NCBI GenBank assembly: GCA_023136205.1 | Contig: JAGLRQ010000130.1 | Coordinates: forward strand, 1 to 15,888 | Direction: 5' to 3' | DNA: 15,888 bases | DNA from: Candidatus Auribacterota bacterium | Lineage (GTDB): Bacteria > Auribacterota > UBA6266 | Position numbers and translations under genes: made by a program | In this document: in pieces, positions 1-15,391 of the stretch | How the letters are laid out: the number at the start of each line of letters is the position of its first letter | Position numbering within the stretch: the first letter of the stretch is position 1 | The notes under the pieces: model-generated | Databases searched by the model: none | What the model saw: only the letters and a program-made list of their open reading frames with translations | Told to the model about the DNA's origin: nothing

Positions 1-219
1 AATAGTTGGGAAATAAATCCTATTTTTAAACTGCTTTCTTCTCTGGGTAATATTGATGAGATGGAAATGTATAAGACCTTCAATTGTGGGATAGGCATGG
101 TTCTTGTTGTGGAAGAAGGCAAGGCTCAGGATATTGTCGAAGAAATTGAAAAGAACAAGGGTGAAGGGTTTATTATCGGGGAGGTTCTAAAGGGGAATAA
201 AGACGTTAAGTTTGCATAA
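1..219 (+). CDS. purM: phosphoribosylformylglycinamidine cyclo-ligase (AIR synthetase), C-terminal fragment; 5' end lies outside the window
   Basis: Frame 1 is open from base 1 to TAA at 217-219. The translation NSWEINPIFKLLSSLGNIDEMEMYKTFNCGIGMVLVVEEGKAQDIVEEIEKNKGEGFIIGEVLKGNKDVKFA resembles the PurM C-terminal domain (EM..TFNcGIGmv). It lies directly upstream of purH-purD-purE. Not in the ORF track because it has no start in the window. Confidence 0.8.
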   Translation, partial: NSWEINPIFKLLSSLGNIDEMEMYKTFNCGIGMVLVVEEGKAQDIVEEIEKNKGEGFIIGEVLKGNKDVKFA

Positions 220-235
220 ATTTGTGAGGAGGAAA

Positions 236-1810: not shown

Positions 1811-1822
1811 CGGGAAATTTTT

Positions 1823-3106
1823 ATGAAAATACTTGTCATTGGTTCAGGGGGAAGAGAGCATGCTCTTGTATGGAAGCTTTCCAAAAGTTCCGGTGTCTCA
1901 AAACTATTCTGCGCGCCGGGTAACGGAGGTATAGCTTCCCTTGCCGATTGTGTAAATATAAAAGCAGATAATATAGCACAGCTTACTGCCTTTGCCCTTA
2001 AAAACGGAATAGATTACACAGTTGTTGGGCCGGAAGTGCCTCTTACTGCGGGCATATCTGACGAATTTGAGAAAAACGGCCTTAAGATTTTTGGGCCTGT
2101 GAAAAATGGTGCCCGCCTGGAAGGAAGCAAGGTTTTTTCGAAGGAGTTTATGCGGAAATATAATATACCAACCGCGGATTTTAAGGTTTTTACAGATGTT
2201 TCATCCGCGTTGGGCTATATAAATAAAAAAGGGGTACCGATTGTTATAAAAGCTGATGGCCTTGCCGCGGGAAAAGGGGTTTTTGTATGTAACAGCGCTG
2301 ATGAAGCCCGAAAGTCGGTTAGGCTTATTATGGAGCAAAAGATATTTGGAGACGCGGGGGATAAAATAATAGTTGAAGAATGCCTTGAAGGAGAGGAAGC
2401 ATCGATTCTCGCATTTTGCGATGGGGAAACAATCACGATTATGGAATCATCTCAAGACCACAAGAGAATAGATGATGAAGACAAAGGCCCTAATACAGGT
2501 GGAATGGGAGCCTATAGCCCTGCACCTGTCGTAAATGGTAAGCTGATAGGGCAAATCAGAGAAGAAATCTTTGATAGGATCCTGGCGGGTTTCAAGAAAG
2601 AGGCGATAGATTATAAGGGTGTTCTTTATGCCGGCATTATGGTTACTGATAAAGGGCCGAAGGCCCTTGAGTTTAACGTAAGATTTGGTGATCCTGAAAC
2701 ACAACCGATACTTATGAGGCTCAAAACAGATCTCATGGATATAATAAAAGCGGTAACATCAGGCAACCTGAAAGATATAAAGCTTGAATGGAATGAAAAT
2801 CCGGCAGTTTGTGTTGTGATAGCTTCAGGCGGATATCCGGGCAAGTACAGCAAGGATTATGAAATAAGGGGGTTAGATAAAACGGCAGAATTAGAAAACT
2901 TGTTTGTTTTTCATGCCGGAACAAATATAAAAAATGAAAAATTTTATACATCGGGCGGGCGGGTGCTTGGAGTAACGGCAATGGCTAATGATATTAAAAA
3001 GGCTATTGATAAGGCATATATGGGTGTTAGGTGCATATATTTCAGGGATGCTCATTTCAGAAAAGATATAGGAGCCAGGGCGATAAAAACAGTGAATCGT
3101 GAATAG
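1823..3106 (+). CDS. purD: phosphoribosylamine--glycine ligase (GAR synthetase)
   Basis: 427 aa. MKILVIGSGGREHALVWKL N-terminus, ATP-grasp core (VIKADGLAAGKGV, EEASILAFCDG, GPNTGGMGAYSP, EFNVRFGDPETQ) and SGGRVLGV near the C-terminus. The last codons (VNRE*) are encoded by heptamer repeats. Confidence 0.95.
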   Translation: MKILVIGSGGREHALVWKLSKSSGVSKLFCAPGNGGIASLADCVNIKADNIAQLTAFALKNGIDYTVVGPEVPLTAGISDEFEKNGLKIFGPVKNGARLEGSKVFSKEFMRKYNIPTADFKVFTDVSSALGYINKKGVPIVIKADGLAAGKGVFVCNSADEARKSVRLIMEQKIFGDAGDKIIVEECLEGEEASILAFCDGETITIMESSQDHKRIDDEDKGPNTGGMGAYSPAPVVNGKLIGQIREEIFDRILAGFKKEAIDYKGVLYAGIMVTDKGPKALEFNVRFGDPETQPILMRLKTDLMDIIKAVTSGNLKDIKLEWNENPAVCVVIASGGYPGKYSKDYEIRGLDKTAELENLFVFHAGTNIKNEKFYTSGGRVLGVTAMANDIKKAIDKAYMGVRCIYFRDAHFRKDIGARAIKTVNRE

Positions 3107-3188
3107 CAGGTATTTCGTTGTGCGTCGTGCGTGATGCGTCGTGCGCGAAAAAATAAGAACTCAATACTCAATACGCATCACACAATAC
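3090..3188. repeat. composite short tandem heptanucleotide repeat block in the purD-purE spacer
   Basis: Read directly from the sequence. CAGTGAA TCGTGAA at 3090-3103. TTCGTTG TGCGTCG TGCGTGA TGCGTCG TGCGCGA at 3114-3148. TCAATAC TCAATAC GCATCAC ACAATAC at 3161-3188. A 9-bp inverted repeat, GTGATGCGT (3131-3139) / ACGCATCAC (3173-3181), links the second and third arrays. Confidence 0.7.
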
Positions 3189-3214
3189 AATGTTTTATAA
3201 ATGGAGGGCTTGAA

Positions 3215-3730
3215 ATGAATATAAAACCGGTTGTTGGAATTGTTATGGGGAGTGAATCCGATTTTGAAGTGATGAAAAAAGCAGGGGATATGCTGGGCAA
3301 GTTTAAAATTCCGTATGAAATAGATGTAATAAGCGCTCACAGGTCTCCGAAACTTGTAGTAAAATATGCAGAGGAAGCCATAAGAAATGAGCTGAAAGTG
3401 ATTATTGCGGGTGCCGGTAAAGCCGCTCATCTTGCGGGAGTTATTGCGGCTCATACCACAATACCGGTTATAGGGGTACCCATTTCATCTGATGATCTTA
3501 AAGGGATGGATGCGCTTTTTTCCATGGTTCAAATGCCTGCCGGGGTACCTGTTGCTACCATGGGGCTTGGTTCTTCCGGGGCAAAGAACGCGGCAATCCT
3601 CGCGGCTGAAATACTTTCGCTTTCCGATACAAAAATATTCGATAAACTTTTAAATTACAGAACGGTTCTTGAAGAAGAAGTTTTGGCTGCTTCCGAGCGG
3701 GTAAAAAAAGCAAGTGCGGAGAAGAAATAA
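3215..3730 (+). CDS. purE: 5-(carboxyamino)imidazole ribonucleotide mutase (class I PurE-like)
   Basis: MNIKPVVGIVMGSESDFEVMKKA, SAHRSP (class I-type AHR signature as I recall it), IAGAGKAAHLAG and PVIGVP. ATG at 3215 is preceded by GGAGGG at 3203-3208. The track's start at 3131 adds 28 residues (MMRRARKNKN...) that are only a translation of the heptamer arrays. Confidence 0.9.
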   Translation: MNIKPVVGIVMGSESDFEVMKKAGDMLGKFKIPYEIDVISAHRSPKLVVKYAEEAIRNELKVIIAGAGKAAHLAGVIAAHTTIPVIGVPISSDDLKGMDALFSMVQMPAGVPVATMGLGSSGAKNAAILAAEILSLSDTKIFDKLLNYRTVLEEEVLAASERVKKASAEKK

Positions 3731-3752
3731 AGGCAATTAAAAATTTCGAGTT

Positions 3753-4361
3753 ATGAAGATTTTTAAAGCGAACAATTCAAAAGAGATTGAGGGTGCGGCA
3801 GCTAAAGCCGCGCGCGTTATCAGAAATGGCGGTATTGTAGCTTTTCCAACGGAAACTGTTTACGGGCTTGGAGTTGATGCTGAAAACAGTGAAGCTGTGA
3901 GCAGGCTTTTTAAACTTAAGAAACGCGACGAACGGAAACCCTTTACGAGGTTAATCTCTTCGGTTGAAATGATAAATCCTGGTTGTAATATTGTCCGGGA
4001 TGCTAAGAAAGTTATGGAAGAGTTTTGGCCGGGGCCTCTTACAATTATTCTTAAATGCAGTGATAAAAAGATTGGTTTCAGAATGCCCTCCTGTGAAATT
4101 GCTCTTAAGCTTGTTGAAAAGGCGAATGTCCCGCTTGCTGCTCCAAGCGCAAATCCGGGCGGAATGCCTAATCCGGTTGAGGCGGGGACGGTATTAAATT
4201 ATTTCAGGGATAAGATAGATGTTTTGATTGACGGCGGGAAAACAAGGCTTGGTGTTGAATCTACTATTATTGATTTTTCTAAACCGAAAAAAAAACTTTT
4301 AAGAGAAGGGGCATTAAAAGTGGAAGAAATAGAGAATGCAACAGGAATAAAACTAACGTAG
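3753..4361 (+). CDS. tsaC: L-threonylcarbamoyladenylate synthase, short YrdC/TsaC type (t6A biosynthesis)
   Basis: 202 aa with the YrdC/Sua5 fold signature GGIVAFPTETVYGLGVDA, KKRDERKPF, WPGPLT, APSAN and STIIDF. No C-terminal Sua5 domain. Same neighbourhood as the Bacillus ywlC-ywlE-ywlF-glyA block. Confidence 0.85.
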   Translation: MKIFKANNSKEIEGAAAKAARVIRNGGIVAFPTETVYGLGVDAENSEAVSRLFKLKKRDERKPFTRLISSVEMINPGCNIVRDAKKVMEEFWPGPLTIILKCSDKKIGFRMPSCEIALKLVEKANVPLAAPSANPGGMPNPVEAGTVLNYFRDKIDVLIDGGKTRLGVESTIIDFSKPKKKLLREGALKVEEIENATGIKLT

Positions 4362-4384
4362 CAATATCGAAAGTAAATTTACGA

Positions 4385-4846
4385 ATGAAAAAGAATGTGT
4401 TGTTTGTTTGCACGGGTAACAGTTGCCGTTCTCCAATGGCAGAGGGGTATTTTAATTATCTTACGAAAAAAAAGACACTGAATATGGAGGCCAGGTCCGC
4501 GGGTACTTCTACTTTTTGCGGTTTCTCTCCCACTGCGGAAGCAATACAGGTAATGCGTGATAGCGGTATAGATATTTCTAATCATAAAGCAAGGAAACTT
4601 ACGCTTGAGATGATAGATAGAGCTGATATAGTCGCGGTTATGGCCCGCGGCCATAAGAGCCGGATTCATTCAGAGTTCGGGGTTTTCTCGGGGAAACTGA
4701 AATTACTCAAGGAATACAGCTGCCATGCTGATCTGAAAGATATGGAGATTTTCGATCCCATAGGGAAGCCCTTGAAAGAATATAAAAAGTGTTTTGAAAG
4801 CATGAAACCGGCAATTGAATATATGGTAGAGGTGTTATGCAAATAG
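4385..4846 (+). CDS. low-molecular-weight protein phosphatase (YwlE-like; Tyr/Arg phosphatase family)
   Basis: N-terminal CX5R(S/T) P-loop VLFVCTGNSCRSPMAEG and a C-terminal DP acid motif (EIFDPIGKP). Located between tsaC and rpiB, as ywlE is in Bacillus. Confidence 0.85.
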   Translation: MKKNVLFVCTGNSCRSPMAEGYFNYLTKKKTLNMEARSAGTSTFCGFSPTAEAIQVMRDSGIDISNHKARKLTLEMIDRADIVAVMARGHKSRIHSEFGVFSGKLKLLKEYSCHADLKDMEIFDPIGKPLKEYKKCFESMKPAIEYMVEVLCK

Positions 4847-5274
4847 CTATAGCGAGTGACCATGGGGGATTTGCTTTTAAGCAAATCCTGGAAAAGTATC
4901 TTAAGGAATTAGGGCATGATGTTGAAGATTTTGGGTGCGGCAGTGAAGAGTCCTGTGACTATCCTGATTTTGGCATACCGGCCGCAAAAAGTGTAGCCAG
5001 GGAGAAAAATGAAAGAGCTATACTTGTTTGTACAAACGGCATAGGTATGTGTATGCTGGCAAATAAAATAGAAGGAATTCGCGCCGCGCTGGTCTACAGT
5101 GAAAAAACAGCCAAAAAGACAAGACAGCACCATAATTCTAATGTTCTTTGTCTCGGAGCACAGGAATTTCCATTTGGGGAACTTAAATCTTTTGTTAGAA
5201 TTTGGCTTGAAACGAATTTTGACGGCGGCAGGCACGAAAGACGTATTAATAAAATCGATGAATTGTTGCAATAG
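4837..5274 (+). CDS. rpiB: ribose-5-phosphate isomerase B (RpiB/LacAB family)
   Basis: MQIAIASDHGGFAFKQ, DYPDF, ILVCTNGIGMCMLANK, RQHHNSNVLCLGA and GGRHERRI. The start overlaps the upstream stop by 10 nt (ATGCAAATAG). Confidence 0.9.
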   Translation: MQIAIASDHGGFAFKQILEKYLKELGHDVEDFGCGSEESCDYPDFGIPAAKSVAREKNERAILVCTNGIGMCMLANKIEGIRAALVYSEKTAKKTRQHHNSNVLCLGAQEFPFGELKSFVRIWLETNFDGGRHERRINKIDELLQ

Positions 5275-5286
5275 AGGAAAAATAAA

Positions 5287-6591
5287 ATGAAAAAACTAAA
5301 AGAAGTAGACCCTGAAATTTATGATGTTATTCAGAAAGAAGTTGAAAGAGAAGAGTATCATATAGAACTTATAGCATCGGAGAATTTTACCAGCAGCGCT
5401 GTTCTTGAAGCTGCCGGTTCAGTTCTTACAAATAAATATGCCGAAGGCTACCCGGGGAAAAGATATTACGGCGGTTGTGAGTGTGTTGATATCGCGGAGA
5501 ATCTTGCGATAGAAAGAGCAAAAGCATTATTTAAAGCAGAGTATGTGAATGTCCAGCCTCACTCCGGTTCCCAGGCAAATATGGGAGTGTACTTTGCTAT
5601 TTTGAAACCCGGGGATACAATTCTTGGGATGAATCTTGCCCACGGAGGCCATCTTACCCATGGAGCTAAAGTAAATTTTTCCGGGAAAATGTACAATGTT
5701 TATTCCTATGGCGTCAGCAAAGAAAGTGAAATGCTTGACTATGATGAACTATTAAACATAGCGAAAGAATGTAAACCCAGCTTAATAATTGCGGGTGCGT
5801 CTGCTTACTCCAGAATAATCGACTTTGAAAAGTTCAGGCAAATTGCGGATGAGGTTGATGCTTATCTTATGATGGATATGGCTCACATAGCGGGCCTTGT
5901 AGCTACGGGACATCATCCCTCACCTCTCGATCACGCCCATTTTGTGACAACAACGACCCATAAAACGTTAAGAGGCCCAAGGGGCGGTATGATTTTAATG
6001 GGTAAAGATTTTGAGAATAAAATGGGACTGGTAGTAAAAAAGACAGGCAAACTGAAGATGATGAGCAGCATTATAAATTCAAGCATTATGCCCGGTATTC
6101 AGGGCGGGCCTCTGATGCACATTATAGCGGCAAAAGCAGTTGCTTTTACGGAAGCCTTAAAGCCGGATTTTGCTGAATATTCCTCGCAAATAATAAAAAA
6201 TGCAAAGGTTTTGTGTGAAACGCTTAGATCGAAGGGTTTTAGAATTGTATCAGGAGGAACAGATAATCACCTTTTCCTTGTTGACCTTACCAATAAAAAC
6301 ATAACAGGCAAAGAAGCTGAAAAAGCATTAGCAGGGGCCGGTTTGATTGTAAATAAAAATGGGATACCGTTTGACACGAAATCGGCATTTGTAACTTCAG
6401 GAATAAGGATAGGGACGCCTGCGGCAACAACCAGGGGAATGAAAGAAAAGGAGATGGAACTTATCGGAGGATTTATTTCGGAGGTCCTTTCTTTGCCTGA
6501 GAATGAAAAAGTTGCGGGTGAAATAAAAAAGAAAGTCAAAAAGCTTTGTGAAACGTTTCCGATGTATGAAGGCCTTATTAAGAAGCAGTGA
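5287..6591 (+). CDS. glyA: serine hydroxymethyltransferase
   Basis: 434 aa. [38 protein letters not shown], the PLP-lysine motif [14 protein letters not shown] and [19 protein letters not shown] upstream. Confidence 0.97.
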
Positions 6592-6620
6592 ATAGTGACT
6601 CGTGAATGGTAAACAGTGAA
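6586..6620. repeat. tandem heptanucleotide repeat (NNGTGAA family, 5 units) at the glyA / dCMP deaminase junction
   Basis: CAGTGAA TAGTGAC TCGTGAA TGGTAAA CAGTGAA read directly. The first unit contains the glyA stop (TGA 6589-6591). Units 3-5 encode MVNSE of the longest deaminase ORF. Confidence 0.7.
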
Positions 6621-7121
6621 ATGACAGAAGAAGAAAAGGTAAAAAACAAAAAGATTGGGGATGCCCGTCCCAGCTGGGATGAGTATTTTATGCAGATTGC
6701 TTGTCTTATTTCCCGGCGCTCGACCTGCCTTAGAAGGAAAGTCGGATCTGTTATAGTAAAAGACAAACATGTCCTTACGACCGGCTATAATGGTGTTCCG
6801 GCAGGACTAAAGCATTGTGTAGAGATTGGATGTCTCCGGATGAAGGAAAATGTTCCTTCTGGACAACGGCATGAGCTTTGCCGCGGCCTTCACGCGGAAA
6901 TGAATGCTCTTATTCAGGCGGCAAAATTTGGTATAAATATTGAAGGTAGTACATTCTACTGCACAGTGCATCCATGTATTCTCTGCGCGAAGATGATTAT
7001 AAATTCCGGTATCAGAAAAGTAATTATTAAGGAAGGGTATCCAGATGAAAATGCTGTAAAGATGTTTAAGGAAGCAGATATTAAAATAGAGAAATTTCAA
7101 GAAAAACGAGAACAGTGTTGA
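6606..7121 (+). CDS. dCMP deaminase (ComEB / deoxycytidylate deaminase family)
   Basis: SWDEYFM..A.L.S.RS.C.RRKVG, and the zinc motifs HAEMNAL and PCILCAKMIINSGI. The start is ambiguous: ATG 6606 lies inside the heptamer array, and ATG 6621 lies immediately after it. Confidence 0.9.
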   Translation: MVNSEMTEEEKVKNKKIGDARPSWDEYFMQIACLISRRSTCLRRKVGSVIVKDKHVLTTGYNGVPAGLKHCVEIGCLRMKENVPSGQRHELCRGLHAEMNALIQAAKFGINIEGSTFYCTVHPCILCAKMIINSGIRKVIIKEGYPDENAVKMFKEADIKIEKFQEKREQC

Positions 7122-7146
7122 CACACTATATATGGTGTGATAGGTT
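7118..7146 (+). promoter_or_regulatory. candidate sigma70-type promoter of the nrdR-nrdD operon
   Basis: TTGACA at 7118-7123, a 17-bp spacer, then TGaTAGGTT (extended -10-like) with the hexamer at 7141-7146. It overlaps NrdR box 1, as is typical for NrdR-repressed promoters. The -10 is weak, so this is tentative. Confidence 0.4.
7123..7138. promoter_or_regulatory. NrdR box 1
   Basis: ACACTATATATGGTGT is a near-perfect match to the palindromic NrdR-box consensus acaCwAtATaTwgtgt, as I recall it from comparative genomics of nrd regulons. Confidence 0.8.
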
Positions 7147-7153
7147 GGTGAGT

Positions 7154-7169
7154 GCACTATATATACTGC
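7154..7169. promoter_or_regulatory. NrdR box 2
   Basis: GCACTATATATACTGC has the same CACTATATAT core as box 1. It is offset by exactly 31 bp, the usual tandem NrdR-box spacing of about three helical turns, and lies about 40 nt upstream of the nrdR start. Confidence 0.75.
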
Positions 7170-7208
7170 TCTTCTTTCTAAACTATTATTAGCTTCAGGG
7201 TGTTGGGA

Positions 7209-7685
7209 ATGCGGTGTCCATATTGTGATTATGAAGAGGATAAAGTGGTAGACTCCAGGTCATCCAACGACGGAAAGGTCATAAGGAGACGTCGAGAATG
7301 CCTTAAGTGTTCAAAAAGATTTACCACGTATGAAAGAGTTGAAAAAGTTCCTATTTCTGTTGTAAAAAAAGGAAACATTCGTGAGGATTTTGATAGAAAC
7401 AAGATTTTTGAAGGTGTCCTTAAAGCTTGCCAGAAAAGGCCTATAGGTATAGATAGGATTGAACAATTGGTTGATGAAGTTGAGCAGGAACTTGAAACAG
7501 AAGGCAGAAAAGAAATTAAATCCGAGAAGATAGGGGAGCTTGTAATGAACAAACTCCAGTTACTGGATGATGTCGCTTATGTAAGATTTGCTTCCGTTTA
7601 CAGGCAGTTTAAAGACGTTAATCAGTTCATGTCGGAAATAACAGGTATTTTGGGTGAGGGGAAAAAGAATGATAAAAGAGGTTGA
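7209..7685 (+). CDS. nrdR: transcriptional repressor NrdR (Zn ribbon + ATP-cone)
   Basis: MRCPYCDYEEDKVVDSR...RRRRECLKCSKRFTTYE zinc ribbon, followed by an ATP-cone (VVKKGNIREDFDRNKIFEGV...AYVRFASVYRQF). ATG 7209 gives the canonical MRCP.C N-terminus. The track's GTG at 7200 adds 3 residues. Confidence 0.95.
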   Translation: MRCPYCDYEEDKVVDSRSSNDGKVIRRRRECLKCSKRFTTYERVEKVPISVVKKGNIREDFDRNKIFEGVLKACQKRPIGIDRIEQLVDEVEQELETEGRKEIKSEKIGELVMNKLQLLDDVAYVRFASVYRQFKDVNQFMSEITGILGEGKKNDKRG

Positions 7686-10074
7686 TAAGGGAACCTATAT
7701 TCGGAAAAGGGACGGCAGGCTTGTTCCGTTTGATAAAAAGAAAATAGCATCAGCTATATTCAAAGCTGCGAAAGCTGTTGGTGGTGAGAACAGGGAACTT
7801 GCCGAGGAGCTTGCGGAAGCGGGTGCTTTTTACCTCCGTAGAAACTATTCCGGTTCTGTTCCGAATATTGAGGAAGTACAGGATATAGTTGAAAAAATAC
7901 TTATTGAAACAGGGCATGCCAGGACGGCGAAAGCTTATATTCTTTACAGGGATTCGCGGGCGAGGAAACGACAGGAACTTAAAGTCAGAAAAAAAATTAT
8001 GCATTCGGGTAATTCCACAGACCTTGCCCTAATGGTTTCCCCGTCTTCGAAAGATCAAATGTTTAAGTGGGACAGGGCCAGGATAGTTCTCGCTCTGATA
8101 AGGGAAGCGCGTTTTCCGCAGCATGTTGCGGAGGAGATAGCGGCGGCAGTTGAAAAGAAAATTTTTAATTCAGGGTTGGATCAACTCTCCACATCACTCA
8201 TAAGAGAATTGGTTGATAATGAATTATTTTTAAGAGGTTATGATACTAAACTAAAAACTCAATCCATTATTGGTATGCCGACCTATGACCTTGAACAGTT
8301 GATTATGTCGAAGAGCAAAGAGAACAGCAACATAGCAACAAACAATCCCGAGGCTATTAACCTGTCGATAGCGGAAACAACCCTGAAACAATACGCTCTT
8401 GAAAAGGTTTTTAGTGAAGAAATTTCCGAAGCTCACCTGAAAGGGCAAATACATCTTCATGACCTTGGCTATCCAACGAGGGTCTATTGTTCAAGCCATT
8501 CTCTTGAATATCTTAAGAAATATGGACTTCAGCTTGCGAACCTTGATACGTCATCGGCTCCCGCAAAACATGCAAGGACGCTTACAGGGCACCTTAATAC
8601 TTTTCTTGCTTCTATGCAGGCATACTATGCAGGAGCACTGGGAGTAGGTTATATTAATGTATTTTATGCGCCTTATCTGGTCGGCATGTCATATGAACAA
8701 ATGAAGCAGGAAGCACAGTATCTTATTTTCAGTGGATCTCAGAACGCGTTTTCCCGCGGCGGCCAGACACTTTTTCTCGATTTTAATATTCACACAGGCA
8801 TTCCTAATTATATGAAAAAGGTACCTGCTATAGGGCCCGGAGGAAAATACACCGGTAAAACTTATAGTGAGTACGAGAAAGAAACCCGGATGTTTGCGAA
8901 AGCCATGCTCGAAGTATGGTCAAAAGGTGATAACGGCGGAAGAATTTTTGCATTCCCTAAATGCGATTTTCATATTAATAAAGAAACGTTTAAGGATCCT
9001 GTGCAGTTTGAGATTTTGAAATATGCCTGTGAAATTGCCAGTGAAAATGGGACACCGTATTTTATATTTGATAGGGATGAGGTGACGCTCTCGGCCTGTT
9101 GCAGACTGAGAACCAAGATAAAAGACAATTATATGCTTGAACATCCAGAGAGCATGCGTTTCTGCGGATTTCAGAATGTGACGGTTAATCTTCCCCAGGC
9201 TGCTTACCGGGCAGGGAAGGGGAATATGAAAGGTTTACTTAAAGAAGTGGAAAGGTGCGTGGGATTGTGTGTTAAGGCCCATCTTGAGAAGAAAGAGTTT
9301 ATTAATGAACTCATGAGATATCCCGGAGCGCCAATGTGGGAAGTCGGGAAGACGGCTCTGGATGGAAGGCCCTATATTGACCTTGAGCAGTGTACATACA
9401 TAATAGGGATAATGGGTTTAAACGAGGCAACACAGTTTGTTATGGGAAAAGAACTTCACGAAAATGAAGATGCCCTGAAGTTTGGATTGAAAGTTATTGC
9501 CCATATGTTTTTCCTTGCGAAACAGGCAGAAAAGAAATATGGAGTTAAATTTAGCCTGGAGGAATCTCCTGCCGAATCTGCGACCAGACGGTTGGCGAAA
9601 GTTGATATGCAGACTTTTCCTGAAGCCAGGCAGTATGTAAAAGGCGATTTTGAAAATGATGAATACTATTACACAAATTCAATTCACCTTCGCGCTGATG
9701 CGGAGGTGGATATAGTTACAAGGATTGAGAAGCAGTCAAAGTTTCATACCATGATAGAATCGGGAGCCATAATCCATGCTTTTGTGGGTGAAAAGCTTCC
9801 TTCCTCGGAAAGTGTTCTTAATCTTGTGAGAAAGACCTTTGAAAAAACTCAGGCGGCGCAGATTACAATATCACCGGAATTTACTATTTGCCGCCAGTGC
9901 AAAAAAAGTTTTATAGGCATTAAAAATTCTTGTCCGAATTGTTCTGCTGTTCGCATTCCGGGTGTGGAAACGCTTAAGGAAAAAACTTTGTCCATAAAGT
10001 GGAAAAGAAATCGGTTTGCGGCAAAAAGATGCGAGCCTGAAACAAAAACGGAAAAAATAAAAGTAAAAGCTTAA
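7669..10074 (+). CDS. nrdD: anaerobic ribonucleoside-triphosphate reductase (class III), large chain lacking a canonical glycyl-radical motif
   Basis: N-terminal ATP-cone (YIRKRDGRLVPFDKKKIASAI...AKAYILYRD), IHLHDLGY, the SACCRLR Cys motif (codons at 9097-9102), YYTNSIH, and the C-terminal Zn ribbon CRQC(x11)CPNC (9889-9942). After the ribbon it reads SAVRIPGVETLKEK plus a Lys-rich tail instead of R[IV]xGY...WN.GK. ATG 7669 with GAGGGG upstream is preferred to GTG 7654. It overlaps the nrdR end. Confidence 0.9.
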   Translation: MIKEVDKGTYIRKRDGRLVPFDKKKIASAIFKAAKAVGGENRELAEELAEAGAFYLRRNYSGSVPNIEEVQDIVEKILIETGHARTAKAYILYRDSRARKRQELKVRKKIMHSGNSTDLALMVSPSSKDQMFKWDRARIVLALIREARFPQHVAEEIAAAVEKKIFNSGLDQLSTSLIRELVDNELFLRGYDTKLKTQSIIGMPTYDLEQLIMSKSKENSNIATNNPEAINLSIAETTLKQYALEKVFSEEISEAHLKGQIHLHDLGYPTRVYCSSHSLEYLKKYGLQLANLDTSSAPAKHARTLTGHLNTFLASMQAYYAGALGVGYINVFYAPYLVGMSYEQMKQEAQYLIFSGSQNAFSRGGQTLFLDFNIHTGIPNYMKKVPAIGPGGKYTGKTYSEYEKETRMFAKAMLEVWSKGDNGGRIFAFPKCDFHINKETFKDPVQFEILKYACEIASENGTPYFIFDRDEVTLSACCRLRTKIKDNYMLEHPESMRFCGFQNVTVNLPQAAYRAGKGNMKGLLKEVERCVGLCVKAHLEKKEFINELMRYPGAPMWEVGKTALDGRPYIDLEQCTYIIGIMGLNEATQFVMGKELHENEDALKFGLKVIAHMFFLAKQAEKKYGVKFSLEESPAESATRRLAKVDMQTFPEARQYVKGDFENDEYYYTNSIHLRADAEVDIVTRIEKQSKFHTMIESGAIIHAFVGEKLPSSESVLNLVRKTFEKTQAAQITISPEFTICRQCKKSFIGIKNSCPNCSAVRIPGVETLKEKTLSIKWKRNRFAAKRCEPETKTEKIKVKA
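9966..9974 (+). repeat. direct repeat copy 1 (GGAAACGCT) in the nrdD 3' region
   Basis: GGAAACGCTtAAG at 9966-9978 versus GGAAACGCTgAAG at 10244-10256 (12 of 13 nt). Both copies are read in frame as E-T-L-K in their respective ORFs. Confidence 0.6.
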
Positions 10075-10091
10075 GATAAAGGAAGATAAAC

Positions 10092-10388
10092 ATGGAGATT
10101 ATAAGTTTTGTAGACAGATGTATAGGGGAAGGTCTGGAGTGGTCTGACGGTGAATATGGAAAAGTTGACGGAATATTTGTAAAGGACCCTTGTCGAGGCG
10201 TGCATTCTCATTTTTCAAAGGACGTTATAGAGAAAAACGATTGGGAAACGCTGAAGACTCAGATTTATCAGGGAAAAGATATTTACCATGTGACCCGGAT
10301 TGTCGGATATTTTTCAAGAATAGAAAACTGGAATAAAAGCAAGCTGGGAGAACTTAAAGACAGACAGAAAGGAATCTATACTTTGTAA
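10092..10388 (+). CDS. stand-alone NrdD-type glycyl-radical domain protein (98 aa)
   Basis: The C-terminal 35 residues, GKDIYHVTRIVGYFSRIENWNKSKLGELKDRQKG, are the canonical class III RNR glycyl-radical terminus (R-I-x-G-Y...W-N-K.K..E..DR) with Gly72 at 10305-10307. AAGGAAG RBS 6 nt upstream of ATG 10092. It is in a different frame from nrdD, 17 nt after the nrdD stop. The N-terminal ~60 aa are not recognisable to me. Confidence 0.75.
   Translation: MEIISFVDRCIGEGLEWSDGEYGKVDGIFVKDPCRGVHSHFSKDVIEKNDWETLKTQIYQGKDIYHVTRIVGYFSRIENWNKSKLGELKDRQKGIYTL
10244..10252 (+). repeat. direct repeat copy 2 (GGAAACGCT) inside the 98-aa ORF
   Basis: See copy 1. The copies lie 278 nt apart. Confidence 0.6.
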
Positions 10389-10444
10389 ACTGTAAAAAAG
10401 GATAAAAATTATTTAACGGGCAATATAAAGAGGAAGGAGTTTTT

Positions 10445-10720
10445 ATGAAAATAAAAATTTTTGGGAAATCAAATTGTGCAAAGTGTGAAACAACAAAAAA
10501 CAAATTCAACCATTTTCTTGAAAAATGGGATTGCAGGGATAAAGTTGAGCTTGTGTTTTTCGATATGGACACCGTTGAGGGAATGGCAGAAGGGGCTTTC
10601 AATGACGTTTTAAATATACCTGCCACGATAATTGAAAGAGACAATCGTCAAATAGCCAGGTGGGATGGAGAAGTTCCCAGATCCGAAGAATTTAAAACGC
10701 ATTTTTCCAACCTTAACTAA
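10445..10720 (+). CDS. glutaredoxin/NrdH-like thioredoxin-fold redoxin (CxxC)
   Basis: 91 aa. Beta-strand then CxxC at the N-terminus (MKIKIFGKSNCAKCETTK), a candidate cis-Pro loop (NIPATII), and size and layout typical of small Grx/NrdH/YruB-like proteins. Strong RBS AGGAAGGAG upstream. Confidence 0.7.
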   Translation: MKIKIFGKSNCAKCETTKNKFNHFLEKWDCRDKVELVFFDMDTVEGMAEGAFNDVLNIPATIIERDNRQIARWDGEVPRSEEFKTHFSNLN

Positions 10721-10730
10721 TATGTTATAA

Positions 10731-11447
10731 ATGCAGTCTCTTCCCGATATTAGAGGTTTTATAAAAAACACTTTGATAGAGTGGGATGGCCTGATTTCTT
10801 CGGAGGTATTTTTGCCGGGGTGTAATTTCAGGTGCCCCTATTGCCATTCATATGAACTTTTTACAAAACCCGATGAACTTGATGCCGTCAGCTGGGATGA
10901 TGTGTGCAAGTATCTGGATGAAAAGAAGGGCTGGGTTGACGGACTTGTCCTTTGCGGCGGTGAGCCTTTCATGAGCAGAGGAATATTGAATTGCCTTGAA
11001 ATGTTAAAGAATCGCGGTATCAAAGTTAAAATCGATACGAACGGTTATTTCCCCGAGGAATTGCGAAAAGCTATTGCCAGGCAGCTGGTTGCCTATATTG
11101 CGATGGATATAAAAGCGCCTTTGAATGCCCTGGAGTATTCGCGCGTTACAGGTGTAAACAATGTTGATATTTTGAAGTTGGTGGAATCGATAAACCTGAT
11201 TAAAAAATCGGGGATTGATTATGAATTTCGCACGACAGTGTGCCCGGTTTATATAAACAAAAAAAATGTCGTTGAGATTGCAAAATCAATAGAAGGCGCG
11301 AAAAAATATTCACTCCAGCAGTTTAACCCAAAGAACTGCTATAGTACATCTCTCAGGGGAATAAAACCGTATTTAAAGGAAGAAATATATGAGATGAAAA
11401 AACTTGTTGCCCCTTATGTAGAGAGTTGTATGGTAAAAGGAGTATGA
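10731..11447 (+). CDS. nrdG: anaerobic ribonucleotide reductase activating protein (radical SAM, NrdG2-like)
   Basis: IRGFIKNTLIEWDGLISSEVFLPGCNFRCPYCHS carries the CX3CX2C radical SAM cluster in the context typical of NrdG activases. GGEPF SAM-binding motif. Located in the nrd operon. Confidence 0.88.
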   Translation: MQSLPDIRGFIKNTLIEWDGLISSEVFLPGCNFRCPYCHSYELFTKPDELDAVSWDDVCKYLDEKKGWVDGLVLCGGEPFMSRGILNCLEMLKNRGIKVKIDTNGYFPEELRKAIARQLVAYIAMDIKAPLNALEYSRVTGVNNVDILKLVESINLIKKSGIDYEFRTTVCPVYINKKNVVEIAKSIEGAKKYSLQQFNPKNCYSTSLRGIKPYLKEEIYEMKKLVAPYVESCMVKGV

Positions 11448-11475
11448 AGAGAATTGTTTACCGTGGAGAGTTTGA

Positions 11476-12474
11476 ATGAGAGAAAAAGAGGCTCTTTTTG
11501 GTGTTAAGGAGGGGGATGAAATTAGATGTACTTTATGCCCGCACAGGTGTCTTCTTTCCGAAGGTTCTCTTGGAGTGTGCAGGACACGAAAGAACTCCAA
11601 TGGGAAGCTTGTCACTCTGATTTATGGCTGTGTAAGCAGTTTAGCACTTGATCCTATAGAAAAAAAACCTCTGTATCATTTTTATCCGGGGAAAGATATA
11701 TTAAGCGCGGGCACAGTAGGCTGCAACTTTCACTGCCCTTATTGCCAGAACTGGCAGATTTCGCAGAATGTGGAAGCTGTATGCAGTTACATTTCTCCTG
11801 AAGAATTGGTTGGCCGGGCTCTTAAAGAAAATTCCATAGGTATTGCCTATACATATTCGGAACCCCTAATATGGTATGAATATGTCAGGGACTCCGCTGA
11901 GCTTTGCAGAAAAAAGAATCTTAAAAATGTTTTAGTAACAAACGGTTATATAGAACCGAAACCCCTGGAAGAGCTTTTGCCTTTGATCGATGCGATGAAC
12001 ATAGATCTTAAATCTTTCAGAGAAGATTATTACAGGCGTTTGTGTGGAGGAAGCCTTGAACCTGTCCTGAAGACTATAAGATTGTCTTCCCGACACTGCC
12101 ATGTAGAACTTACCCATCTTATTGTTCCCGGGGAAAATGATTCTGTTCAGGAAATTGAAGGAATGTGCGGGTGGATAGAAAAAGAGATTGGAAAGGATAC
12201 ACCATTTCACATAAGCAGATATTTCCCGAATTATAAGTTTGATACCCCTTTTACGCCGGATACTATTCTTAAGCGAGCATATTCTATCGCTAAAAAACAC
12301 CTTAGTTACGTTTATATAGGAAATGCGGATTTACCTGGCGCGTCGGATACAAAATGCCCTTCTTGTGGAGAGGTTCTTGTAGGAAGAAGCGGTTATGACA
12401 CCAGGATTGTCTCAGTGAAAGATAATAAATGTTTAAAATGCGGCCAAAAAACAAAAATAGTCATGGATAGGTGA
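11476..12474 (+). CDS. amrS: AmmeMemoRadiSam system radical SAM enzyme (PFL-activase-like)
   Basis: Family-typical N-terminus IRCTLCPHRCLLSEGSLGVCRTRKNSNGKLVTLIYG...DPIEKKPLYHFYPG, then GCNFHCPYCQNWQISQ (radical SAM cluster), and the C-terminal Cys ribbon CPSCGEVLVGR...CLKCGQ. GGAGAG RBS upstream. Confidence 0.85.
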   Translation: MREKEALFGVKEGDEIRCTLCPHRCLLSEGSLGVCRTRKNSNGKLVTLIYGCVSSLALDPIEKKPLYHFYPGKDILSAGTVGCNFHCPYCQNWQISQNVEAVCSYISPEELVGRALKENSIGIAYTYSEPLIWYEYVRDSAELCRKKNLKNVLVTNGYIEPKPLEELLPLIDAMNIDLKSFREDYYRRLCGGSLEPVLKTIRLSSRHCHVELTHLIVPGENDSVQEIEGMCGWIEKEIGKDTPFHISRYFPNYKFDTPFTPDTILKRAYSIAKKHLSYVYIGNADLPGASDTKCPSCGEVLVGRSGYDTRIVSVKDNKCLKCGQKTKIVMDR

Positions 12475-12573
12475 AAAACAGGAGTTATAAAAATGGCTTG
12501 TATATATGTACATTATGAGTAATACTTTAGGAAGATTTGGTTGTCTATAGTCTGTTTTAAAAGGAATTCTATT

Positions 12574-12978
12574 ATGATGTTTCGCTTTGTTGGATTGTTA
12601 CTTTTAGTTTTTTTCCTGGCTTCTTGTGATGAGCAAGTACCGGATTATATTTTGCACAAGCTTCCATCAGGAAAAAAAATAAAACTGATAGGGGTCGGAG
12701 AGGTATCTTGTACCGGGGATAATATTGCTTTGATGCTTAAATATAAGACTGATTATAATATAAATAACTCTGTTGCTCTCCGTCGCGAAGTTAAAGAGAT
12801 ATGGCAATATTTTCAAGCGGATGTTGAAAAAGCCGGGTTAAAAAATGCTGTTATCAGTGTGGACGAGCCGTTGAAGAAGAGGCTAATTAAGGCAAACTGT
12901 TCATATAACTTTGCGATTTCAAAACAATCCGGTACTGCATGGAAATTTTCAAAGCCCAGACGATGTTATGATATATAG
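12574..12978 (+). CDS. small lipoprotein of unknown function
   Basis: MMFRFVGLLLLVFFLASCDEQ is a signal peptide plus lipobox (L-A-S-C). ATG 12574 has AAGGAA at 12561-12566. The track's TTG at 12541 would bury the signal peptide. The remainder shows no recognisable family. Confidence 0.6.
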   Translation: MMFRFVGLLLLVFFLASCDEQVPDYILHKLPSGKKIKLIGVGEVSCTGDNIALMLKYKTDYNINNSVALRREVKEIWQYFQADVEKAGLKNAVISVDEPLKKRLIKANCSYNFAISKQSGTAWKFSKPRRCYDI

Positions 12979-12985
12979 CTCATTT

Positions 12986-14629
12986 CTACGTTTCTTCTTG
13001 TTCTATCGTTAAATCCTGGATATCAGCTTTTTTCTCAAGGTTTTTATGCCATTCATAATAAACAATCTGTTGTTTTTCTCTGACAACTTTTTCTCTATAG
13101 TTTTCTTTTTTCTTTTCAAAAGCAGACATATCCGGTTTTACTGTATTGGTTATCCAGAGGATTACTGTTCCTGACATAATTTCTATCGGTTCGCTTAAAA
13201 TGTTTTCACCGATTGAAAATGCTACATTATTGAATTGTGGGCTTTCGTCACCCGCCTGTGTTTTAGAGGAGGCGGAAACGGATTTAGAAGTTTCAATGGC
13301 AAAACCGAGTTCTTTTGCTATATTTTCTAGCGGGGTATCCGGAGTTTTTTGAATTTTTTCTTCCATCCTTTTTCTTGATACACCGGCCTCTTTATATGCT
13401 ATCTTTTTTGCTTTTGAGATTTTCAGCGATTCTTCGGCTCTATTTTTACAATTATCAAATGGAGGGATTTTTGATGGCATTTTTACCCTGGGAATAAGTA
13501 TCACGAATTCATTTCCGAGAAAGACAGGCGCGGATACCTTGTTAATTTCGGTAGTGAACGCGACTCTTGCGAATATTATAGGGTTGGAAATGCCTTTAAT
13601 TGATTCAAACCGTGTGAAAAAATCGGATTTTTGAAGCTGGACATTATGCTTTTTCGCGGCTTCTTCCGCTGACAGCTTACCGCTATCGATATCAAAAAAG
13701 ATATCCGTAAGTTTATTTGACACAAGATCAGAAGCTCTTTTCATTGTAAGGGTTTTTGATATATCCTCTTTGCATTCATCAAATGTTTTAAGAGAATTAT
13801 CCTTTTTTCTAAACCGCTCCTTATTCTTGCTGTAAAATGCTTCTTTTTCCGCATTAGTGATATTTATTGTCGGATCTTTATCATTGATTTCAAGTGTTAT
13901 GTAGTCTACTTTTACTTTTTCATCTACTCTGAAAAGCTCTTTGTTGTTTTTATAGTATTGCTCAATTTCTTCTCCGGTGCAGGAAACTTTGTCAACGTAG
14001 TTTTTATATGGAAAGGACAAGAAAGAAAGATCCCTTTTTTCATTTTCTTTTATGTAATATTTTTCCGCTTCGCTGTCAGTTACCATTATGTTGGTAGTTA
14101 TCAGGTTTTGAAGTTTTTCAATTAAAAGACTTCGCTTAAGTTCTTTTATAAACCCGGATTGAGTGCTGTTGAAAAAGAGGAAGCGGAGCACTGTATTGAA
14201 TTTATCTTCAGCAAAACGGCCTGAAGTCTGAAAGAGAGGAAACCTTGCTATCCATTTTGTCACTTCTTTGTCCGATACGAGTATTCCCATATCCCCGGCT
14301 TCCTTTTCGAACAGCAGTCTATTCCATGCTTCTTTTCTTAAGGCGCTTTCCTGGGATATTATGCTCTCAAGGACCTGTTTGTTCGCGAGGATTGTTTCAT
14401 AATTCTGGACTTTATAGAAAAGGCACAAGCTGATGATTTGCCAGGAGGCCGCTCCTCTTAAGCTGGAAGAATATTCATTGCTGTCCACGGGTTTGCCAAA
14501 GATGAATCCTGTAATTGGTCCTTCGGGGCTGCCGCCTCCGCCTCCGCCCCATAAAACAAAGGCTGGAATGATAAGAACCAATATACCTATAAGGATATAT
14601 TTTGAATATTTATGCATTTTTATAAGCAT
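12986..14629 (-). CDS. membrane-anchored periplasmic chaperone, PpiD/SurA-like (parvulin region degenerate)
   Basis: 547 aa. N-terminal anchor KYILIGILVLIIPAFVLWGGGGGGS, as in PpiD, followed by long helical SurA-N-like regions. A parvulin-end-like stretch is present (FARVAFTTEINKVSAPVFLGNEFVILIPRVK), but I cannot see clear catalytic parvulin motifs. AAGGAGAA RBS upstream of the ATG at 14629. Confidence 0.55.
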   Translation of the reverse strand: MLIKMHKYSKYILIGILVLIIPAFVLWGGGGGGSPEGPITGFIFGKPVDSNEYSSSLRGAASWQIISLCLFYKVQNYETILANKQVLESIISQESALRKEAWNRLLFEKEAGDMGILVSDKEVTKWIARFPLFQTSGRFAEDKFNTVLRFLFFNSTQSGFIKELKRSLLIEKLQNLITTNIMVTDSEAEKYYIKENEKRDLSFLSFPYKNYVDKVSCTGEEIEQYYKNNKELFRVDEKVKVDYITLEINDKDPTINITNAEKEAFYSKNKERFRKKDNSLKTFDECKEDISKTLTMKRASDLVSNKLTDIFFDIDSGKLSAEEAAKKHNVQLQKSDFFTRFESIKGISNPIIFARVAFTTEINKVSAPVFLGNEFVILIPRVKMPSKIPPFDNCKNRAEESLKISKAKKIAYKEAGVSRKRMEEKIQKTPDTPLENIAKELGFAIETSKSVSASSKTQAGDESPQFNNVAFSIGENILSEPIEIMSGTVILWITNTVKPDMSAFEKKKENYREKVVREKQQIVYYEWHKNLEKKADIQDLTIEQEET

Positions 14630-14778
14630 ACTAAAGTTCTCCTTTGTAATGATTTGAAAAAACGATTATAATGAATGATACTCTTGAGGTAAAGCAAAAA
14701 TATAATATTATTCTTAGGCCTGATATAAAGATGGTATGTGCTTTTATCAGAAAGGGTTATGGTTATAATATTGAAAAG

Positions 14779-14834
14779 CAGTGATTAATGAATCTTTTTT
14801 ATACTATTCACGATTCACCATTCACCATTCACGA
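14779..14834. repeat. heptanucleotide repeats (NNGTGAA family) in inverted arrangement upstream of the NYN gene
   Basis: Forward degenerate units CAGTGAT TAATGAA (14779-14792), a T-rich spacer, then four reverse-orientation units TTCACGA TTCACCA TTCACCA TTCACGA (14807-14834). The arms at 14781-14793 and 14806-14818 can pair at 10 of 13 positions. Confidence 0.7.
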
Positions 14835-14851
14835 ACTACAGTATCTACTAT

Positions 14852-15277
14852 ATGAAAAAATATCTTATAGATGGTTATAATCTTCTTCATGCTTGGAAAA
14901 AAGAGCATGTGTTTAACTCAAAGACATTTGACGGTATGAGGGAAGAGCTTATCCGGAGTCTCCAAATGCTGGCTGATTTCAAAGATATAGCAATTGAAGT
15001 CTATTTTGACGGGAAAATCCGGAGTAAGGACAAAATCGAAGGCAGCCCGCACTTTAAGGTGATTTTTACCTCAAAAGAGATAACGGCTGATACCGCGATT
15101 GAAAGAGCTGTTTATAACGCTGAAAGCAAAAAAGAATTAACAGTTATAACATCGGATAGGAAGATCAGGGATTTGGCAATGGCTCTGGGGGTTCTCTCTC
15201 TTAATCCTATGCACTTTCTGGCAGATTTAAAGGAAGCCAAAAAAGAGATATCAAAGCTTCTTACCCTCAAAAAGTGA
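14852..15277 (+). CDS. NYN-domain protein, YacP/Rae1-like (predicted ribonuclease)
   Basis: MKKYLIDGYNLLHAWKK, IEVYFDGK, VIFTSKEITADTAIER and VITSDRKIRD reproduce the conserved acidic motifs of the YacP-like NYN family (DUF901) as I remember them. Confidence 0.8.
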   Translation: MKKYLIDGYNLLHAWKKEHVFNSKTFDGMREELIRSLQMLADFKDIAIEVYFDGKIRSKDKIEGSPHFKVIFTSKEITADTAIERAVYNAESKKELTVITSDRKIRDLAMALGVLSLNPMHFLADLKEAKKEISKLLTLKK

Positions 15278-15310
15278 TGGCACTCTCGACCTAAGTGTTC
15301 AAAAAATCAT

Positions 15311-15339
15311 TTGACTTTTAAGGTGGCAGATAATAGAAT
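15311..15339 (+). promoter_or_regulatory. candidate sigma70-type promoter for the downstream coiled-coil gene
   Basis: TTGACT (15311-15316), 17-bp spacer, TAGAAT (15334-15339), about 50 nt upstream of ATG 15392. AT-rich DNA produces such matches by chance, so this is tentative. Confidence 0.45.
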
Positions 15340-15391
15340 TCACTCTTAGCGTTTTGCCATTTATTAAACGGTGGTTTTGGAGGGTTCTTTC

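Follow-up and report, generated by a model that had tools for sequence, protein, structure and literature searches.

A candidate two-subunit class III ribonucleotide reductase with a separately encoded glycyl-radical domain in Candidatus Auribacterota

Introduction

Where does a class III ribonucleotide reductase (RNR) obtain its radical when its catalytic chain carries no radical glycine? This question is raised by a 15,888-nucleotide stretch of DNA from a Candidatus Auribacterota bacterium (GenBank assembly GCA_023136205.1, contig JAGLRQ010000130.1, positions 1 to 15,888 of the forward strand; hereafter the window), in which the glycyl-radical motif is absent from the large NrdD chain and is found instead on a separate open reading frame (ORF) of 98 residues. 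An original prediction made from the sequence had proposed that the radical-bearing loop is supplied in trans. The analysis presented herein supports that proposal as far as sequence goes, through a conserved split, selection, a widespread protein family and gene pairing on contigs.

Among glycyl radical enzymes, only the formate-lyases have identified spare-part proteins, the matter being left open for the others (June 2026 review, PMC13450708), and an earlier publication likewise names such proteins for formate-lyases only (Andorfer et al., 2021; PMC8683613). The locus therefore bears on a question posed in the literature, namely whether glycyl radical enzymes besides pyruvate formate-lyase (PFL) possess replaceable radical modules (PMC13450708). 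Searches of open-access papers and bioRxiv preprints revealed no NrdD-type stand-alone radical protein or split radical domain, and within that literature the earlier view that this arrangement is undescribed for RNR stands, in agreement with both publications.

A class III reductase chain without its radical domain

Profile alignments identify the large ORF as NrdD and locate the point at which the resemblance ends. It scored 393.7 bits against Pfam NRDD (PF13597, cut-off 26.2), covering positions 1-528 of 562 with the alignment ending at residue 764, and 374.6 bits against TIGR02487 (cut-off 326.35), covering positions 1-551 of 581. The hidden Markov model (HMM) alignments thus stop at residues 764-768, that is, at the Zn ribbon. 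An ATP-cone occupies residues 15-103, and relatives of the chain in the PDB include 8p23, 9d3x, 4coi and 1h78. The C-C-R-L-R residues of the finger loop are invariant in one alignment of homologues (A3) and present in the consensus of another (A2); the motif ACCRLR is presumably the site of the catalytic thiyl-radical cysteine. Of the features of a class III RNR, the locus accordingly shows the NRDD barrel, the finger-loop cysteines, the Zn ribbon and NrdG, and lacks only the sequence RVxGY...WN.GK on the same chain after the ribbon. Following CPNC the chain reads SAVRIPGVETLKEK... and continues into a Lys-rich tail up to a TAA stop at 10072-10074. The earlier description of a large ORF with a CRQC...CPNC ribbon, a Lys-rich end and no radical motif is confirmed both by the sequence and by the ends of the HMM alignments.

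The tail itself bears little resemblance to a radical domain. Compared with an HMM built from cis radical domains, it gave no significant match (E 7.7). Its identity to the corresponding tails of two related loci (L011 and L013; loci and proteins of the comparison are denoted by L and P numbers) is 33-38%, the ratio of nonsynonymous to synonymous substitution rates (dN/dS) between relatives lies at 0.27-0.45, and IKWK is its sole conserved patch. The segment RIPGV had been taken for a decayed copy of the radical motif, and this interpretation was rejected: Gly770 is replaced by Asp in L006 and L007, which read KIPDV, and when the tails are aligned to the cis-domain HMM the segment falls on the post-ribbon linker DVYGIT, not on RIVGY. 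Judged from its sequence, the tail is a weakly constrained remnant at the position where relatives carry the radical domain.

A small protein bearing an NrdD-type radical domain

The next ORF begins 17 nt after the nrdD stop, in another frame and with its own ribosome-binding site (RBS) AAGGAAG, and contains the intact motif, exactly as had been claimed. Its residues 63-93 align to positions 532-561 of Pfam NRDD (E 3e-5), and its match to TIGR02487 covers positions 548-580 of 581. Both models are therefore split between the two ORFs, the large one reaching the end of the ribbon and the small one supplying the radical motif, an outcome of the HMM comparison that agrees with the original prediction. 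The radical domain comprises residues 61-98, the last 38 of the protein, and aligns to residues 704-736 of the P. copri NrdD (8p23). Across 34 family members, R69, V71, G72, Y73, S75, N79, W80 and N81 are invariant, as are S83, K84, E87, L88, R91, G94 and Y96, and the consensus of the domain hardly differs from the one found in cis in related NrdDs. The small ORF has no match to Pfam Gly_radical (PF01228) at E<=0.1, its only Pfam match being NRDD, and its NCBIfam matches are to NrdD models only.

The preceding ~60 residues were originally regarded as a novel region with a possible replacement metal site, and only the first part of that claim survives. AlphaFold2 (AF2) predicts residues 1-60 as an alpha-beta3-alpha2 fold with a predicted local distance difference test (pLDDT) score of 84-90, and F6 and W51 are nearly invariant among the 34 homologues, together with a hydrophobic pattern. 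A search of the PDB with this domain gave no fold match (best E 0.73). Full-length NrdDs match the family profile only from about position 57, so the N-terminal domain is specific to the small proteins. The metal site proposed at C10, C34, H38 and H40 was rejected, since these residues are not conserved among the 34 homologues.

Structure prediction was also applied to the two chains together. In the small protein alone, the radical hairpin is predicted with a pLDDT of 46-51. When the two window chains were joined end to end and modelled as a fusion, with an alignment that included intact NrdDs and matched the small-protein motif to the radical domains that relatives carry in cis, the hairpin-helix unit reached a pLDDT of 75-89, the tail was disordered (residues 781-800, pLDDT 47-59), and the fold resembled solved NrdDs (8p2s, 4coi and 1h79) with a template modelling (TM) score of ~0.7. 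These models are consistent with a hairpin that needs the barrel in order to fold.

Conservation of the split across independent assemblies

The block formed by nrdR, an nrdD of ~800 residues without radical motif, a small ORF of 98-99 residues, a thioredoxin-like gene (trx) and nrdG recurs in at least 6 other assemblies spanning at least 4 GTDB species. Split loci were found in a JGI metagenome (L005), in an NCBI metagenome-assembled genome (MAG; L006, the same record as L013), in a Logan assembly (L007) and in GTDB species representatives (L010; L011, UBP3 UBA6266; L012, Candidatus Auribacterota). Across these loci the identity of the small protein falls to 59-66%, and the ORF is intact throughout. 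Each small gene has its own G-rich RBS (equivalents in L006 and L007), and its frame relation to nrdD differs from locus to locus; together with the intact ORF, these features exclude errors of assembly, a frameshift of recent date and programmed frameshifting.

Substitution patterns point in the same direction. In the comparison with L010, a 94%-identical relative, dN/dS is 0.13 for the whole small ORF (0.15 for its N-terminal domain and 0.08 for its radical domain), 0.06 for the NrdD core and 0.45 for the NrdD tail. At ~60% identity synonymous sites are saturated, yet the small ORF remains unbroken, and at greater distance the radical domain retains an amino-acid identity of 84-87%, the N-terminal domain one of 43-47% and the tail one of 33-38%. 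By these sequence comparisons, the small ORF and the split are under purifying selection, and relatives keep the split, contrary to the pseudogene case that the original prediction had named as a possible refutation.

Interruption of nrdD by an intron, ribozyme or intein, as in T4 nrdD and archaeal RNRs, was considered and rejected: the intervening stretch consists of the tail and a conserved domain, the window holds no Rfam match at gathering score, permissive scanning of 9800-10500 returned only chance-level matches, and no intein or endonuclease Pfam match lies between the two coding parts.

An unnamed family of stand-alone radical proteins

The small protein belongs to a large family. A word-indexed search retrieved 135 homologues of 64-152 residues, most of ~100-120 residues and many matching over their full length. 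Furthermore, a profile search over 1.84 billion cluster representatives (clusters at 50% identity) gave 1001 matches at E<=1e-3, of which 611 reach E<=1e-10; of the best 150, nearly all are 90-150 residues long and aligned from residue 1. No Pfam, NCBIfam or PHROG family describes the small protein, and no match was found in GenBank phages. Annotation pipelines leave these proteins in databases as "hypothetical" or, wrongly, as whole reductases.

The family is represented in Auribacterota, Omnitrophota, Elusimicrobiota and Planctomycetota as well as on real phage contigs, in several distinct settings. In GTDB species genomes of the window clade, the small gene lies immediately 3' of an nrdD without radical motif. 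In a second setting it stands with genes for an Rrf2-family regulator, a ferredoxin-like protein (Fer4/AF_0155) and a hybrid-cluster protein (Prismane/Hcp), an arrangement found in Elusimicrobiota, Omnitrophota, some Planctomycetia and MAGs labelled Clostridia (L001, 5508-9042; L002, 2125-6023; L015-L020, L022-L024, L028, L041 and L043). Such hcp clusters are typical of a nitrosative or oxidative stress regulon, as for E. coli hcp and NsrR. An Rrf2 gene was also observed between the small gene and the nrd operon in L170 and L242. In Planctomycetota, ~35 loci, including those of five chromosome-level MAGs, hold a lone small gene among varied neighbours (clpP, araC-like, Fe-ADH, Fic, UPF0102) with no common theme. 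The expectation that separate small genes recur beside nrdD genes ending at the ribbon is thus borne out, with the qualification that many members stand alone, away from nrdD.

Phage-borne members form a further group. In IMG/VR, small ORFs were present in 76 of the 80 matching loci. The contig of L128 is that of a genuine tailed phage (terminase subunits, portal, small gene and head-morphogenesis genes within 4834-14657), in which a small gene of 142 residues (9728-10156) follows the portal gene and precedes those for head morphogenesis; no nrdD is present on the 20 kb of this contig that were read. As a separate observation, an 802-residue protein (P0335) joins a small-family domain (residues 1-100) to a phage-type family A DNA polymerase with 3'-5' exonuclease, and represents either a genuine fusion or two genes called as one.

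Association with reductases that have lost the radical glycine

Association between the small family and nrdD was scored at contig level, that is, on the same contig or within 10 kb flanks. Every pair of a family gene and an nrdD on the same contig involves an NrdD without the radical glycine, and such pairs arose in four independent lineages: the window clade, L170 with L242, L009 and L123. In L170 the NrdD P0390 and the small protein P0051 are encoded 3.8 kb apart, and L242, found by the metagenome scan, has the same layout and belongs to the same subclade. In L123, a phage-like contig, NrdD stops right after the ribbon. Conversely, no family gene was found within 10 kb of an intact NrdD at any of 28 genome loci or 53 metagenome loci (0/81).

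Loss of the radical glycine is frequent among these enzymes. A ribbon without an RxxG[YF] motif was seen in about 20 of 120 relatives of the window NrdD and, in a second set, in 50 of 114 NrdDs of this clade. Many of the motif-less tails are recognisable decayed radical domains (E down to 1e-12 with the cis-domain HMM), in which the glycine column holds Asp (RGMDY, RNLDY), Ser or Thr (the Scalindua types) or Cys-Cys. Decay at the glycine column is as expected once a trans domain took over, and the sequences suggest an order of events in which the trans domain was first available and the cis domain then degenerated. The Asp type (P0138, P0390 and P0393-P0396) pairs with a small gene ~4 kb away in L170 and L242. 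The Cys-Cys type (KRNSCCS) comprises P0422, P0454, P0461 and P0487; L251 is of this type, and L252 is of a RARQVPEV type.

The Scalindua type (P0141, P0190, P0227, P0424, P0445, P0465, P0478 and P0495; loci L192, L193, L195-L204, L208, L209, L217 and L223) has strongly conserved tails, with E-values down to 1e-12 and Ser or Thr at the glycine column (RRLASH, KRSASQ, RRNATS). No small gene was found in the flanks of these loci, which are mostly short. By analogy with aminoacyl radical enzymes, these NrdDs are possible seryl- or threonyl-radical RNRs.

Several loci show other ways in which an NrdD can be divided. In L009 (1431-6686, labelled Lokiarchaeota), which also carries a Topoisom_I gene, a small-family gene lies 1.4 kb upstream of an nrdD fragment (3132-4049); a DUF559-like ORF interrupts this nrdD, leaving the ORFs 3132-4049 and 5001-6686, and the junction contains intein-like sequence. 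The NrdD ends in ...NIYGVEFGKFEEIHEWDNKILNR. A second type of cut is seen in L159, in which the large chain (1798-3780) ends after the first CxxC, in ...FTFCNDCKKTSRGWNRDS, and a 53-residue ORF (9965-10126) holds the second CxxC together with the radical domain, MKQVKCPHCGSTNVEGMSRIVGYFSKIKNW...; comparable ORFs of 50-55 residues are found in L104 (9965-10117) and L121 (10001-10168). With the two CxxC motifs on two chains, a Zn ribbon shared between two subunits is implied. NrdDs ending after the first CxxC include P0162, P0169, P0172, P0174, P0180, P0181, P0184, P0208 and P0218, together with P0183, which is labelled Aenigmarchaeota, and P0223, which is labelled Heimdallarchaeota. Finally, an otherwise intact planctomycetal nrdD (L081, 7743-10189) is read as two overlapping ORFs (7743-8747 and 8744-10189), probably owing to a frameshift error or to a pseudogene.

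A proposed two-subunit mechanism

The window locus is likely to encode a class III RNR of two subunits, one of which would carry the radical, act in trans and be replaceable. This explanation draws on the domain content of each chain, the conservation of the split, selection on the small ORF, the spread of the family and the contig-level association. For activation, docking, radical transfer, activity and the advantage of replaceability we infer the following scheme. The 806-residue chain, having lost its own radical domain, would supply the ATP-cone, the barrel with the cysteine finger loop and the Zn ribbon, and the 98-residue product of the next, co-transcribed gene would supply the radical domain in trans. 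Using S-adenosylmethionine, NrdG would take a hydrogen from Gly72 of the small protein, whose radical hairpin would insert into the barrel of the large subunit at the place held by the covalent domain in an ordinary NrdD. The radical would then move to the finger-loop cysteine for nucleotide reduction, with the adjacent thioredoxin-like protein as the presumed reductant. Glycyl radical enzymes are destroyed by oxygen, the chain being cleaved at the radical glycine; in a divided enzyme such cleavage would cost an 11-kDa disposable subunit, and the 92-kDa enzyme would not have to be remade.

Several findings weigh against this explanation or limit its reach. At 23 of 24 metagenome loci with a glycine-less NrdD, no family gene is visible in the available flanks, and at L251 and L252 (around P0454 and P0427) none lies within 10 kb on either side. 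The pairing was scored on contigs, and a pairing rule at genome level would be an extrapolation from it. Some glycine-less enzymes, namely the Ser and Thr variants of Scalindua type, may operate in another way. In addition, the two-subunit explanation leaves the role of the conserved N-terminal domain of the small protein unexplained. As intact NrdDs were part of the alignment behind the fusion model, its confidently predicted hairpin is not independent evidence of docking.

A broader proposal extends the two-subunit arrangement beyond the window, to many uncultured anaerobes of the Planctomycetota, Auribacterota and other groups: these would possess two-subunit class III RNRs charged through an exchangeable, NrdG-activated 11-kDa "cartridge" that fits into a catalytic subunit without a radical of its own. 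The cells would have placed the cartridge gene in stress regulons (Rrf2-Hcp), and phage copies would sustain deoxyribonucleoside triphosphate (dNTP) synthesis in the host. We regard the case for and against this extension as evenly balanced. The Rrf2-Hcp context and the phage copies suggest that the family also, or originally, served as a replaceable or auxiliary radical module analogous to GrcA/YfiD and to T4 Y06I.

Alternative explanations

The alternative that survives best is that the family acts purely as a classic spare part, expressed upon damage by oxygen or nitric oxide and rescuing, in the manner of GrcA, NrdDs that still possess a radical domain, with the window lineage as a case of secondary dependence. 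It is favoured by the Rrf2-ferredoxin-Hcp clusters holding the small gene in several phyla, by Omnitrophota and Elusimicrobiota NrdDs that keep their own radical domain (P0122, P0148, L080, L088 and L089) and by phages that carry the small gene alone (L128). However, it does not fit the window, whose large chain lacks a radical glycine altogether, and none of the 81 loci examined combines an intact NrdD with a family gene. As an exclusive account it is unlikely, and as the ancestral role of the family it is compatible with the two-subunit explanation.

It is very unlikely that the large chain is a dead relic and that the small protein serves another glycyl-radical enzyme or a function outside ribonucleotide reduction. 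Many family members are indeed encoded far from any nrdD; against this stand the strong purifying selection on the large-chain core (dN/dS 0.06) with its intact finger loop, the conserved gene neighbourhood of nrdD (dCMP deaminase, nrdR, nrdD, small gene, trx, nrdG) and a radical domain of NrdD type rather than PFL type, as the absent Gly_radical match indicates.

We consider it highly improbable that the tail of the large chain holds a non-canonical residue of the aminoacyl radical type and that the small protein is a regulator or a decoy for NrdG. Enzymes with Ala, Ser or Thr radicals exist in the PFL-like superfamily (PMC11528403), and the Scalindua-type relatives keep a conserved, radical-domain-like tail. 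Nevertheless, the tail in the window does not resemble a radical domain, diverges rapidly within its clade and has Asp in relatives at the glycine of RIPGV, and the small protein retains the NrdD radical consensus residues, which a mere decoy would not need.

Finally, the idea that an error of assembly or a frameshift produced the split, or that an ordinary nrdD has recently decayed into a pseudogene, is refuted for practical purposes: the ORFs are adjacent, in different frames and jointly cover the NrdD model, but the arrangement is kept in at least 6 independent assemblies of four GTDB species down to 59% identity, selection acts on both coding parts without any intron or other Rfam match, and the ~100 residues between ribbon and motif, which occur in no intact NrdD, include a 60-residue domain of hundreds of stand-alone proteins.

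Comparison with known systems

The two-subunit explanation invites comparison with GrcA/YfiD of E. coli and Y06I of phage T4. These are likewise small proteins (~11-14 kDa) with a radical domain homologous to the C-terminus of a large enzyme, presumably activated by the activase of the parent enzyme, with phage versions and stress-linked expression. The differences are of three kinds. The present small protein is of NrdD type without a Gly_radical match, so the two families are not homologous (GrcA/YfiD, IPR011140). The N-terminal part of GrcA/YfiD is disordered (PMC13450708), whereas that of the small protein is a conserved domain with a confidently predicted fold. PFL keeps its own radical domain beside GrcA, whereas the parent NrdD in the window has none, and the small protein would be obligatory. 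The parallel with GrcA drawn at the outset is accordingly apt in that a separate small radical protein exists, and falls short in that this protein is the only radical domain in its lineage, for which reason obligate subunit is a fitter name than rescue part.

Single-chain NrdDs with thiol reductants, namely those of T. maritima, N. bacilliformis and M. barkeri (with an NrdH-like redoxin), share with the window the ATP-cone and NRDD barrel, the CC finger loop, the Zn ribbon, an NrdG2-type activase and a thioredoxin-like neighbour. Their single chain continues past the ribbon into the radical domain, whereas in the window this domain sits on another polypeptide behind a family-specific N-terminal domain. 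The closest intact NrdD relatives reach up to 72% identity, and their radical motif is nearly identical to that of the small ORF.

Class I RNR (NrdA and NrdB) is similar in concept, pairing a large cysteine subunit with a small stable-radical subunit; NrdB, however, is a ferritin-like metalloprotein and not a glycyl-radical hairpin, and the chemistry, the relation to oxygen and the transfer path differ. Benzylsuccinate synthase (beta and gamma subunits) and 4-hydroxyphenylacetate decarboxylase (gamma subunit) also have small polypeptides that bind a large glycyl radical enzyme. Those small subunits carry Fe-S clusters or serve a structural purpose, and it is the large chain that keeps the radical glycine. 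In Aeromonas phage Aeh1, a split nrdA yields two polypeptides that reassemble into a fully active RNR (PMC2988022); unlike the present case, it is a class I enzyme with a homing endonuclease in the gene body, and it involves neither a stand-alone family nor a radical-bearing fragment. Aminoacyl radical enzymes, in which Ala, Ser or Thr stands for Gly, are not matched by the window tail and may be matched by the Scalindua-type relatives.

Implications

The locus and its family provide a testable candidate for a divided form of an essential enzyme of anaerobic DNA synthesis. If the proposal is correct, the textbook class III RNR, a single catalytic chain with an activase, would have to be amended by a radical domain that works in trans. 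The formate-lyases would no longer be the only enzymes with a spare-part or trans-radical system, and class III would have its own equivalent of the alpha/beta division of class I. It would also explain the loss of the radical glycine in nearly half of the NrdDs of one large clade, which would otherwise be called inactive. Furthermore, a new gene would join the known auxiliary genes of phages, and the proposal would bear on the DNA-precursor supply of anaerobes under fluctuating oxygen and on the origin of the separate radical subunit of aerobic RNRs.

Gene order and further features of the window

Pfam and NCBIfam profile scans place nrdD within a housekeeping region of nucleotide metabolism. 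The genes, in order, are purH, purD, purE, a tsaC-like gene, a low-molecular-weight protein tyrosine phosphatase (LMW-PTP) gene, rpiB, glyA and dCMP (deoxycytidine monophosphate) deaminase, followed by nrdR, nrdD, the small ORF, the thioredoxin-like gene, nrdG and a radical S-adenosylmethionine (SAM) gene of AmmeMemoRadiSam type. The coordinates of the features discussed are collected in Table 1.

Table 1. Coordinates of the reductase genes and their parts in the window.
Feature	Position	Strand	Basis or detail
nrdR, transcriptional repressor of RNR genes	7200-7685	+	Pfam Zn_ribbon_NrdR 76 bits, ATP-cone 82 bits
Large catalytic subunit (candidate), NrdD without glycyl-radical domain, 806 residues	7654-10074	+	Pfam NRDD and TIGR02487
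Finger-loop motif ACCRLR, residues 481-486	9094-9111	+	Sequence conservation
Zn ribbon, complete, CRQC...CPNC, residues 746-763	9889-9942	+	Read off sequence; CRQC 746-749 (9889-9900), CPNC 760-763 (9931-9942)
Lys-rich tail of large chain, 43 residues	9943-10071	+	RIPGV 9952-9966; IKWK 9994-10005
Shine-Dalgarno AAGGAAG of small gene	10079-10085	+	6 nt ahead of ATG 10092
Small subunit (candidate), stand-alone glycyl-radical protein, 98 residues	10092-10388	+	Homologues, profile matches, dN/dS
N-terminal domain of small protein, residues 1-60	10092-10271	+	AF2 prediction, family conservation
Glycyl-radical domain HVTRIVGYFSRIENWNKSKLGELKDRQKGIY, predicted radical Gly72 at 10305-10307	10287-10379	+	Pfam NRDD positions 532-561
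Thioredoxin-like protein with CAKC	10445-10720	+	Pfam Thioredoxin_3 27.3 bits
nrdG, radical-SAM activase	10731-11447	+	TIGR02495 NrdG2 167.1 bits (cut-off 131.15)

The nrdR gene heads the conserved block and is placed equally in L005, L006, L010, L011 and L013. Site prediction over the stretch between nrdD and the small gene revealed neither a terminator-like nor a convincing promoter-like site. The thioredoxin-like gene lies between nrdD and nrdG in most related loci, whether split or intact, and its CAKC-containing product is the likely reductant of the RNR, a role assigned from sequence and position. NrdG is in turn expected to place the radical on Gly72 of the small protein.

Directly 3' of nrdG, the AmmeMemoRadiSam-type radical-SAM gene (TIGR04337, 332 bits) occupies 11476-12474. 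It also follows nrdG in many related loci, with split and intact NrdD alike, and no AMMECR1 or Memo partner is visible beside it in these loci. Farther 3', a 145-residue ORF (12541-12978) has no Pfam match. Finally, with the GTG start given in the list of ORFs, the first 32 nt of nrdD (7654-7685) coincide with the end of nrdR; because relatives align only from residue 6, the true start is probably the ATG at 7669.

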